A DNA stretch of 64,000 bases from Desulfotalea sp. GTDB lineage: Bacteria > Desulfobacterota > Desulfobulbia > Desulfobulbales > Desulfocapsaceae. Shown piece by piece: positions 3,768 through 4,121 of this stretch (positions are counted from its first letter, which is position 1; every line of letters starts with the position of its first letter). The notes below the pieces were generated by a model. That model made no database searches, was not told the DNA's origin, and saw nothing but the letters and a program-made list of their open reading frames with translations. The stretch lies in NCBI GenBank assembly GCA_002733995.1, contig NVXR01000010.1:35663-99662 (forward strand), written 5' to 3'. A program made the translations under genes and the position numbers.

Positions 3768-4121
3768 TTACTTGGGGGCATCAAGATAAATATAGCTTAC
3801 TGCGCAATTTTCGCTTCCTTCTATAATCCTCAAACCAACCACTTGGCCTAGGGATTGTGCTGTTAATAGCAACGCATATTGTTCTTTAAATACAGGCGAT
3901 GCAGTTGTCATTGTAACGTATACGCCAGAATCAGCGGAACAGTTCAATGATCGTTCATCGCCATCGGTTGCTATCCAGGCTGTGCCTTCACTATCCATTA
4001 ATATACGCTCTATCAGACCCACGCAAATTTTTGTGCTACAGTCAGCGAAGGCAAGGGAGCATTGGAGGATGCCAAAAAGTAAAAAAATAATTGCGATATT
4101 AAATGGTTTGAGGTTACGCAT
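3768..4121 (-). CDS. Small secreted Cys-containing protein with an AB5-toxin B-subunit-like (OB-fold) motif
   Basis: Signal-peptide-like N-terminus ending ...SLAFA|D; 4 Cys in the mature part; segment ALLLTAQSLGQVV resembles StxB SLLLSAQITGMTV (recalled sequence). Confidence 0.6.
   Translation of the reverse strand: MRNLKPFNIAIIFLLFGILQCSLAFADCSTKICVGLIERILMDSEGTAWIATDGDERSLNCSADSGVYVTMTTASPVFKEQYALLLTAQSLGQVVGLRIIEGSENCAVSYIYLDAPK

Follow-up and report, generated by a model that had tools for sequence, protein, structure and literature searches.

A predicted OB-fold protein with four invariant cysteines, resembling AB5 toxin B subunits in fold and encoded with a conserved partner beside surface-polysaccharide clusters

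We analyzed a small gene on the reverse strand of a 64,000-nucleotide stretch of DNA from Desulfotalea sp. (the window; Table 1). A preliminary description, made from the DNA letters alone, had read the gene as encoding a secreted protein of 117 aa with a signal peptide, a mature part of ~91 aa and four cysteines, and both the open reading frame with its quoted sequence and these features were as described. We refer to the product as the OB protein after its predicted fold. The cysteines of the mature part (C2, C7, C35 and C80) were invariant in 137 of 137 aligned relatives, R72 and Y84 (mature numbering) were nearly invariant in the same alignment, and a T-D-G-D-E loop was conserved. B subunits of AB5 toxins have a Sec signal peptide and one or more intrachain disulfides; the OB protein has a signal peptide and the four cysteines and is probably disulfide-bonded, with C7-C80 and C2-C35 as the presumed pairs. 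The A-x-A cleavage site was also conserved, with alanine at -3 in 92 and at -1 in 115 of the 137 relatives, and the residue preceding the first cysteine was often D or E. Since D or E directly before the first cysteine together with an A-x-A site indicates signal peptidase I and not a lipobox, we rejected the possibility that the OB protein is a lipoprotein (the residue before the first cysteine being D, E or A). An N-glycosylation sequon (N34-C-S/T) was rejected as a family feature because it was present in only 62 of the 137 members. An AAGGAG Shine-Dalgarno sequence lay 8 nt ahead of the ATG of the OB gene. The GC content was 0.35-0.43 across positions 3750-5750 as opposed to 0.45-0.50 on either side, and the AT-rich patch noted previously was real but modest.

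Table 1. Features of the locus and of the related loci that are discussed in the text. Positions without a locus name are those of the window.
Feature	Position	Strand	Basis or remark
Gene for the four-Cys, predicted OB-fold protein, 117 aa	3768..4121	-	Stop codon 3768-3770; ORF, relatives, AlphaFold2, Foldseek
Signal peptide, residues 1-26, cleavage between AFA and D	4044..4121	-	Sequence and conserved A at -3/-1
Mature domain, 91 aa	3771..4043	-	Alignment of relatives and AlphaFold2 model
Spacer of 18 nt, partner stop codon to OB gene start	4122..4139	-	Sequence; AAGGAG at 4129-4134
Partner gene, 206 aa: signal or lipoprotein signal (LIGC), N0/STN-like domain, disordered linker, C-terminal helix	4140..4760	-	
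Partner residues 45-118, b-a-b-b-a-b-b, secretin-N0/STN/FecR-C type	4407..4628	-	AlphaFold2, Foldseek, PHROG
Partner residues 186-206, HLIDTQTGNKWEEEEKSLQQE, motif D-x-x-T-G-x-x-W-x-E-x-E	4143..4205	-	Alignment; predicted helix 196-205
Decayed cohesin-like gene remnant, five in-frame stops in alignment, no dockerin-like half	4785..5141	-	tblastn E 1.6e-5, 8.7e-4
Initiating sugar transferase (Bac_transf), last gene of its cluster, convergent with the pair	2676..3413	+	Pfam E 1.3e-48
Split transketolase, N- and C-terminal subunit genes	901..2636	+	
Secreted protein of 853 aa, divergent from the cassette	5547..8108	+	GH42-like match E 4e-4, below cut-off
Proline-tailed membrane protein	L012 3928-4350; L001 111-539; L031 100-639		
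IS3-type transposase fragment	L029 2493-3101		
Histidine kinase and response regulator	L006 1478-3197; L027 3652-5371		
Divergent OB gene and 106-aa two-Cys protein	L015 6001-6770; L016 2207-2976		

A HMMER search of 1.84 billion cluster representatives (clustered at 50% identity) identified 460 relatives at E<=1e-3 and 66 at E<=1e-10. Judged by these relatives, the gene is real and under selection, and the label 'orphan' of the preliminary description does not hold if it is taken to mean a lack of relatives. Word-indexed searches with the OB protein returned 9 and then 42 relatives. Nearly all family members were about 105-125 aa long and were matched along the whole length. The source names among them were limited to 'hypothetical protein' and one 'uncharacterized protein YdaL', and the one named host was an Arcobacter sp. 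Neither the OB protein nor the 137 relatives matched a Pfam or NCBIfam family (Reg_prop reached E 0.078 for the OB protein, below the cut-off), and they gave no PADLOC match and no meaningful PHROG match. Matches of the OB protein to designed 'Pizza' propellers in the PDB, with E-values down to 6.5e-11, were an artefact: a score of ~7.5 bits for the short motif DSEGTAWIATDG was counted once per blade of a propeller with six identical blades, and the sum looked strong. The preliminary description had also pointed to seven residues shared with the Shiga toxin B helix; the count was correct for the strings as quoted, but the family profile, when searched against all PDB sequences, found no toxin chain and nothing relevant at E<=10, and the single sequence likewise found no toxin chain at that threshold, which leaves the likeness without statistical backing in the sequences.

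The source genome had one copy of the OB gene. Among other genomes, the gene was found in 1 of 45 species of the genus and in 3 of 186 species of the family; it was found in none of 24 genomes from other genera of the order, and 400 other genomes sampled across the phylum gave no clear match (best E 4.8e-4). Related members occurred in quite different bacteria, and in one relative a transposase adjoined the pair described below (L029). Such a pattern is that of an accessory gene which moves horizontally along with glycan regions of variable content. A tblastn search of phage and plasmid collections with the OB protein gave no match. The source genome carried dsrA above the curated cut-off, which makes the term 'sulfate reducer' reasonable for the host.

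We predicted the structure of the mature OB protein by AlphaFold2 from its sequence and 41 relatives. The model was confident (mean pLDDT 91.5, pTM 0.79; all five models at 89.4 or above) and contained the elements b1 6-16, b2 21-26, b3 43-46, helix 52-65, b4 68-73 and b5 81-87 (mature numbering). The predicted topology, b1-b2-b3-helix-b4-b5, is an OB fold, as the preliminary description had guessed; a fold other than OB, which it had named as counting against the guess, was not what the model gave. When the model was compared with the PDB by Foldseek, a check that had been proposed along with the guess, ranks 1-24 were all AB5 toxin B subunits, Shiga toxin B among them. The best match was chain C of pertussis toxin, one of the S2/S3 B-oligomer chains, at E 1.6e-3, and the E-values of the B-subunit matches ranged from 1.6e-3 to 4e-2 with none at or below 1e-3. 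The matches to LT-IIb B and cholera-like B had TMq values of 0.59-0.67 and TMt values of 0.53-0.61, those to Stx1B and Stx2B had toxin-normalised TM values of 0.77-0.80 with an rmsd of 2.5-2.9 A, and ArtB appeared lower in the list. Identity to the toxin B chains in the structural alignments was 8-19%. The other OB folds, SilF and RecO, stood below the B subunits (TMq 0.49-0.55), SilF appearing first at rank 25 (TMq 0.50-0.55, rmsd 4.2-5.0). A metal-binding OB protein of the CusF/SilF type was considered and set aside, given this rank of SilF and the lack of conserved Met or His, the conserved residues of the family being Cys, Arg, Tyr, Asp and Glu. The search against predicted viral structures returned two uncharacterised APSE phage proteins, P10 and p7, as the best matches; phages of this kind are known for carrying genes of Shiga-like toxins.

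OB folds are small and have arisen repeatedly. In the predicted structure, the OB protein resembles toxin B subunits at the level of fold, and there is no sequence or profile signal for homology or for membership in a toxin family. The closest comparison in shape is with Stx1B and Stx2B, where the alignment spans essentially the whole 69-aa toxin chain. Both are small and Sec-exported and have an OB fold (predicted in our case) with a helix between b3 and b4, one cysteine close to the N-terminus and one close to the C-terminal strand, and in the helix several consecutive Leu precede small residues. The OB protein differs from Stx B in having 91 aa, four cysteines instead of two and the additional T-D-G-D-E loop, with only 14-19% identity in the structural alignment and no detectable sequence or profile similarity; it also has no RIP-type A gene, a free-living sulfate reducer as the host and a glycan-cluster context. 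LT-IIb B and the cholera toxin-like B subunit of Citrobacter share the OB topology and a similar length (98-103 aa), but the rmsd was 2.8-5.0 A, the identity was 11-15%, and no ADP-ribosyltransferase A gene was found in the source genome. Within the pertussis family of B subunits (S2/S3 and ArtB), the likeness is expressed in the best Foldseek E-value, which falls there. The helix at 52-65 was conserved on its hydrophobic face (Y56, L59 and L60) and also on the opposite face, where the small residues A57, T61 and A62 were each conserved at 0.90-0.93. The small-residue face is what would be expected if it were also an interface, as if both faces were buried, and this two-sided conservation is the one hint of an oligomeric ring, which is plausible.

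The preliminary description had found no A-subunit-like gene adjacent to the OB gene. This held for enzymes, but a non-enzymatic gene 18 nt upstream on the same strand had been overlooked. The 18-nt spacer with its AAGGAG suggests co-transcription, and from this arrangement the two genes are probably co-transcribed and possibly coupled in translation. AlphaFold2 modelled the N-terminal domain of the partner (residues 45-118) with a block pLDDT of 77-90, and the rest of the protein was predicted to be disordered except for the C-terminal helix. The top Foldseek matches of the domain included a FecR-like anti-sigma factor (4m0n, rmsd 2.2 A), the signalling domains of PupA, FecA and FpvA, and the N0 domains of PilQ, XcpQ, GspD and InvG. 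In addition, phrog_1012 (M13 pIV secretin) matched partner residues 45-168 at E 8.6e-5; Pfam FecR_C on the partner (E 0.19) and STN on the partner homologue of locus L002 (E 0.07) were below the cut-off. The predicted b-a-b-b-a-b-b fold of the partner domain thus matches secretin N0, STN and FecR C-terminal domains. However, its domain stands alone, without a secretin pore, TonB-dependent barrel or anti-sigma part, and is joined to a disordered linker and a C-terminal helix that are not known from these families. Within the last 20 residues, D189, T192, G193, W196 and E200 were invariant in seven partners, and the C-terminal motif was duplicated in the longer partners of L002, L008, L026 and L029. 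A possible likeness of the string TGLxWxEAEK to the start of C-type-lectin-like or DUF1566 domains was dropped as it had no Pfam support.

Two types of partner were seen among the loci that carry the family. Those in Desulfocapsaceae-type loci were STN-type, and those in Arcobacter-type loci had 134-192 aa with an N-terminal membrane helix and acidic helical repeats. A short G-L-T/S-W/L-x-E-x-E-K/R-like motif was present in both types. Common ancestry of the two was not supported, since hhalign detected no similarity between them (probability 0.2%) and a loose regular expression for the motif found only some members. No enzymatic domain was found in the upstream proteins with Pfam, NCBIfam, PADLOC or PHROGs.

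To place the gene in context, we compared 16 distinct loci carrying a member of the OB family, which are not phylogenetically independent. A gene for a small exported or membrane-anchored non-enzymatic protein preceded the OB gene in 14 of the 16, and in this respect the OB protein is not truly stand-alone, as had been suggested that it may be. The gap between the two genes was 12-70 nt in the 13 loci in which it was measured, the source locus included. When the partner (P0193) was the sole query, the search led independently to a contig on which an OB gene came next downstream. The pair lay in or beside surface-polysaccharide clusters of several architectures in 12 of the 16 loci, a much stronger link than could be read from the source locus alone; of the other four, two were too short to judge. 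Wzx/Wzy clusters with Bac_transf or Glycos_transf_4 were found at the source locus and at L001, L002, L008, L011, L012 (a locus of a Desulfocapsaceae MAG) and L026, the glycan genes of L011 and L012 being recognised from translations alone. Wzm/Wzt ABC-transporter clusters were present in L006 and L021, and in L021 the pair was inside the operon, on the same strand, between a GDSL/fn3 protein and sugar-nucleotide genes. L017 had a NeuB/nonulosonic-acid cluster, and CMP-sugar types were also among the glycan clusters linked to the pair; L019 had a Wzx-type cluster with aminotransferase and glycosyltransferase genes; and L027 had a UDP-glucose dehydrogenase gene directly downstream of the pair. 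The divergent loci L004 and L015 had no glycan genes.

At the source locus, the adjoining polysaccharide cluster that had been noted previously was indeed present, a Wzx/Wzy-type cluster of ~22 kb that ends with the initiating transferase. Its products include a Wzx flippase, a Wza-like exporter, a Wzy-like polymerase or ligase, a Wzc-like kinase, a CpsB phosphatase, a CapD-like dehydratase, a glycosyltransferase, an acetyltransferase, a DegT aminotransferase and a split transketolase. The two transketolase genes are situated between the aminotransferase and the initiating transferase, and their presence suggests a sugar modification of an unusual kind, branched or keto-sugar. Next to the partner gene, on its upstream side, we detected the remnant of a cohesin-like gene; the partner-OB pair itself was intact. 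An intact cohesin-plus-dockerin-like gene preceded the pair in L001, L011, L012 and L031, encoding proteins of 300-336 aa with D-x-D-G-Y-S-D-Y-Q-E-Y calcium-type repeats and a short hydrophobic tail. A proline-tailed (...PPETPPP...) membrane protein of 140-180 aa opened a four-gene cassette in L001, L012 and L031, and it matched no family in Pfam, PADLOC or PHROGs. In the window, the gene for an 853-aa secreted protein ran divergently from the cassette; GH42 enzymes are TIM-barrel glycosidases, and from its sub-threshold GH42-like match this protein may be a polysaccharide-active enzyme.

Several other neighbours were recorded. In L029, which belongs to another genus of the same family, an IS3-type transposase fragment immediately followed the pair, as would fit a mobile pair. 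In the Arcobacter-type loci L006 and L027, genes for a histidine kinase and a response regulator were just upstream of the pair and may indicate local regulation, and toxin-antitoxin/Abi genes were near the pair in L027. In L015 and L016, the divergent OB gene was followed ~90 nt later by a gene for a 106-aa two-Cys protein that looks like a paralogue, and the two may form a hetero-oligomer. A 3174-aa FG-GAP/SpvB/RHS-type protein ended 1 kb upstream of the OB gene in L015 and was absent from the sister contig L016.

Examination of the homologue neighbourhoods, another check that had been proposed, revealed no linked catalytic A-subunit gene: in the 16 loci no gene for an ADP-ribosyltransferase, ribosome-inactivating N-glycosidase, subtilase or metalloprotease adjoined the OB gene. 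Searches of the 99.95%-complete source genome with the Enterotoxin_a, Pertussis_S1 and RIP models, which were run without a positive control, found none, and the Pfam Enterotoxin_b model did not match the OB protein or its relatives. To our knowledge, AB5 B subunits are known almost only from the toxins of pathogens and a few orphan relatives. A linked A subunit is not obligatory, as the existence of orphan B subunits demonstrates (PMC9120245); those known (YpeB, YenB and PltC) are sequence relatives of SubB/PltB in animal pathogens (PMC9120245, PMC6695444, PMC11610972), and in the view of one recent review, more distant B-like proteins seem to be a reservoir in the environment for the diversification of toxins (PMC11610972). 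The OB family differs from these orphan B subunits in having no sequence relation to them, four invariant cysteines and a conserved partner of its own, and in residing in biosynthetic glycan clusters of environmental bacteria and not in animal pathogens. In our reading, the OB protein is not part of a toxin.

The reading that we favor, with a confidence somewhat short of even, is that the OB protein, B-subunit-like in shape, binds carbohydrate and acts together with its partner on the cell's own glycan. The two proteins would be made from one operon, and the OB protein, probably as an oligomer, would recognise the polysaccharide of the neighbouring cluster. The partner, with its N0/STN-like protein-interaction domain, linker and helix, would tether or position the OB protein in the cell envelope, and the pair would hold, guide, retain or organise surface glycan or matrix in the periplasm or at the surface. 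Here we infer the sugar binding, the oligomeric state and the site of action (periplasm or surface), as we do the disulfide pairing. The points that we counted for this reading were the 460 relatives and the four invariant cysteines with the near-invariant R72 and Y84, the confident OB model, the B subunits at Foldseek ranks 1-24 and the APSE proteins among viral structures, the linkage to glycan clusters, the conserved partner and the independent recovery of the OB gene through it, the conservation on both faces of the helix, and the intact state of the pair beside a decayed cohesin gene. As evidence for sugar binding, the linkage is circumstantial, and part of it could be hitch-hiking because such clusters are islands of low GC and variable content in which accessory genes accumulate. 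Also counted against the reading were the weak Foldseek E-values, the 8-19% identity, the smallness and recurrence of the fold, the lack of a sequence or profile link to toxins, the divergent loci L004 and L015 without glycan genes, the IS3 transposase in L029 and the phylogenetic non-independence of the loci. Since the conserved partner has a periplasmic-type N0/STN domain, a periplasmic role for the OB protein is as likely as that of a secreted lectin or adhesin, as which it had been proposed. Overall, the preliminary interpretation finds partial support.

A bolder version of the favored reading sees in the pair a counterpart to AB5 toxins that is not itself toxic. Five copies of the OB protein would make up a ring, the C-terminal helix of the partner would be threaded into it in the manner of an A2 tail, and the whole would be an envelope-anchored, glycan-handling complex belonging to surface-polysaccharide pathways. 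In that case, toxin B subunits would have been recruited from a pool of the kind that the large environmental OB family represents. We regard this version as improbable.

The main rival to the carbohydrate-binding reading is a periplasmic protein-protein module without lectin activity, in which the pair would be an accessory or regulator of the envelope or of the polysaccharide-export machinery. The OB barrel would bind a peptide or strand of the partner or of the export machine, much as HR domains bind secretin N0. The partner matches N0, STN and FecR-C folds, mediators of periplasmic protein contacts, and we know of N0/STN-type domains only from contacts of this kind; on this point a protein-binding role for the OB fold fits as well as a sugar-binding one. 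The N-terminal membrane helix that anchors the Arcobacter-type partner likewise points to the periplasm, a two-component system adjoins the pair in L006 and L027, and the source genome has three secretins. However, the HR domains of GspC and PilP were not among the top 50 structural matches of the OB model whereas sugar-binding B subunits were, and no secretin or export gene was consistently adjoining. The two partner types are, moreover, without detectable similarity, and the conserved element is therefore the OB protein together with its glycan context. We consider the protein-protein module rather unlikely on balance, and the remaining two alternatives are less likely than it is.

One of these is that the pair is a hitch-hiker of unrelated role, for example in phage-receptor masking or the envelope-stress response, which resides in glycan islands because they are hot spots for acquired DNA. 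The very patchy distribution, with carriers in only 3 of the 186 family species and with the phylum-wide sample of 400 giving no clear match, the low-GC surroundings, the transposase in L029 and the toxin-antitoxin/Abi genes near the pair in L027 agree with such a role. On the other hand, the glycan link recurs across differing cluster architectures and among members only about 30% identical, placement inside an operon on the same strand occurs (L021), and the gene had no match in PADLOC or in the phage and plasmid collections; we judge the hitch-hiker to be quite doubtful.

AB5 operons, too, run from an upstream gene across a short spacer to the B gene. A genuine subunit for toxin delivery, in which a B-like pentamer would carry an unrecognised A component encoded upstream or distally into eukaryotic or bacterial cells, could draw on this shared gene order, on the toxin B subunits as the nearest folds, on the conserved C-terminal helix of the upstream protein as a possible A2 tail and on the giant SpvB/RHS-type protein 1 kb before the divergent member in L015, but it is very improbable given upstream proteins without an enzymatic domain in the four libraries, a source genome in which the A-subunit models (run without a positive control) found nothing, hosts that are free-living anaerobes or environmental bacteria with the genes inside biosynthetic glycan operons, and the absence of the RHS neighbour from L016.

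The OB family is sizeable (460 representatives), and the libraries searched gave it neither a Pfam or NCBIfam name nor an informative one from the sources. It combines a predicted B-subunit fold with the lack of a toxic partner and a repeated link to the surface-polysaccharide genes of the cells that carry it. If sugar binding and ring assembly do not hold, the protein would be one more small OB-fold protein with its function unassigned. If they do hold, the B-subunit fold would have a physiological, non-virulence role, the family could be a source of small, stable lectin scaffolds, and the glycan pathways of Desulfobacterota and Arcobacter-type bacteria would gain the OB protein as a new accessory component.
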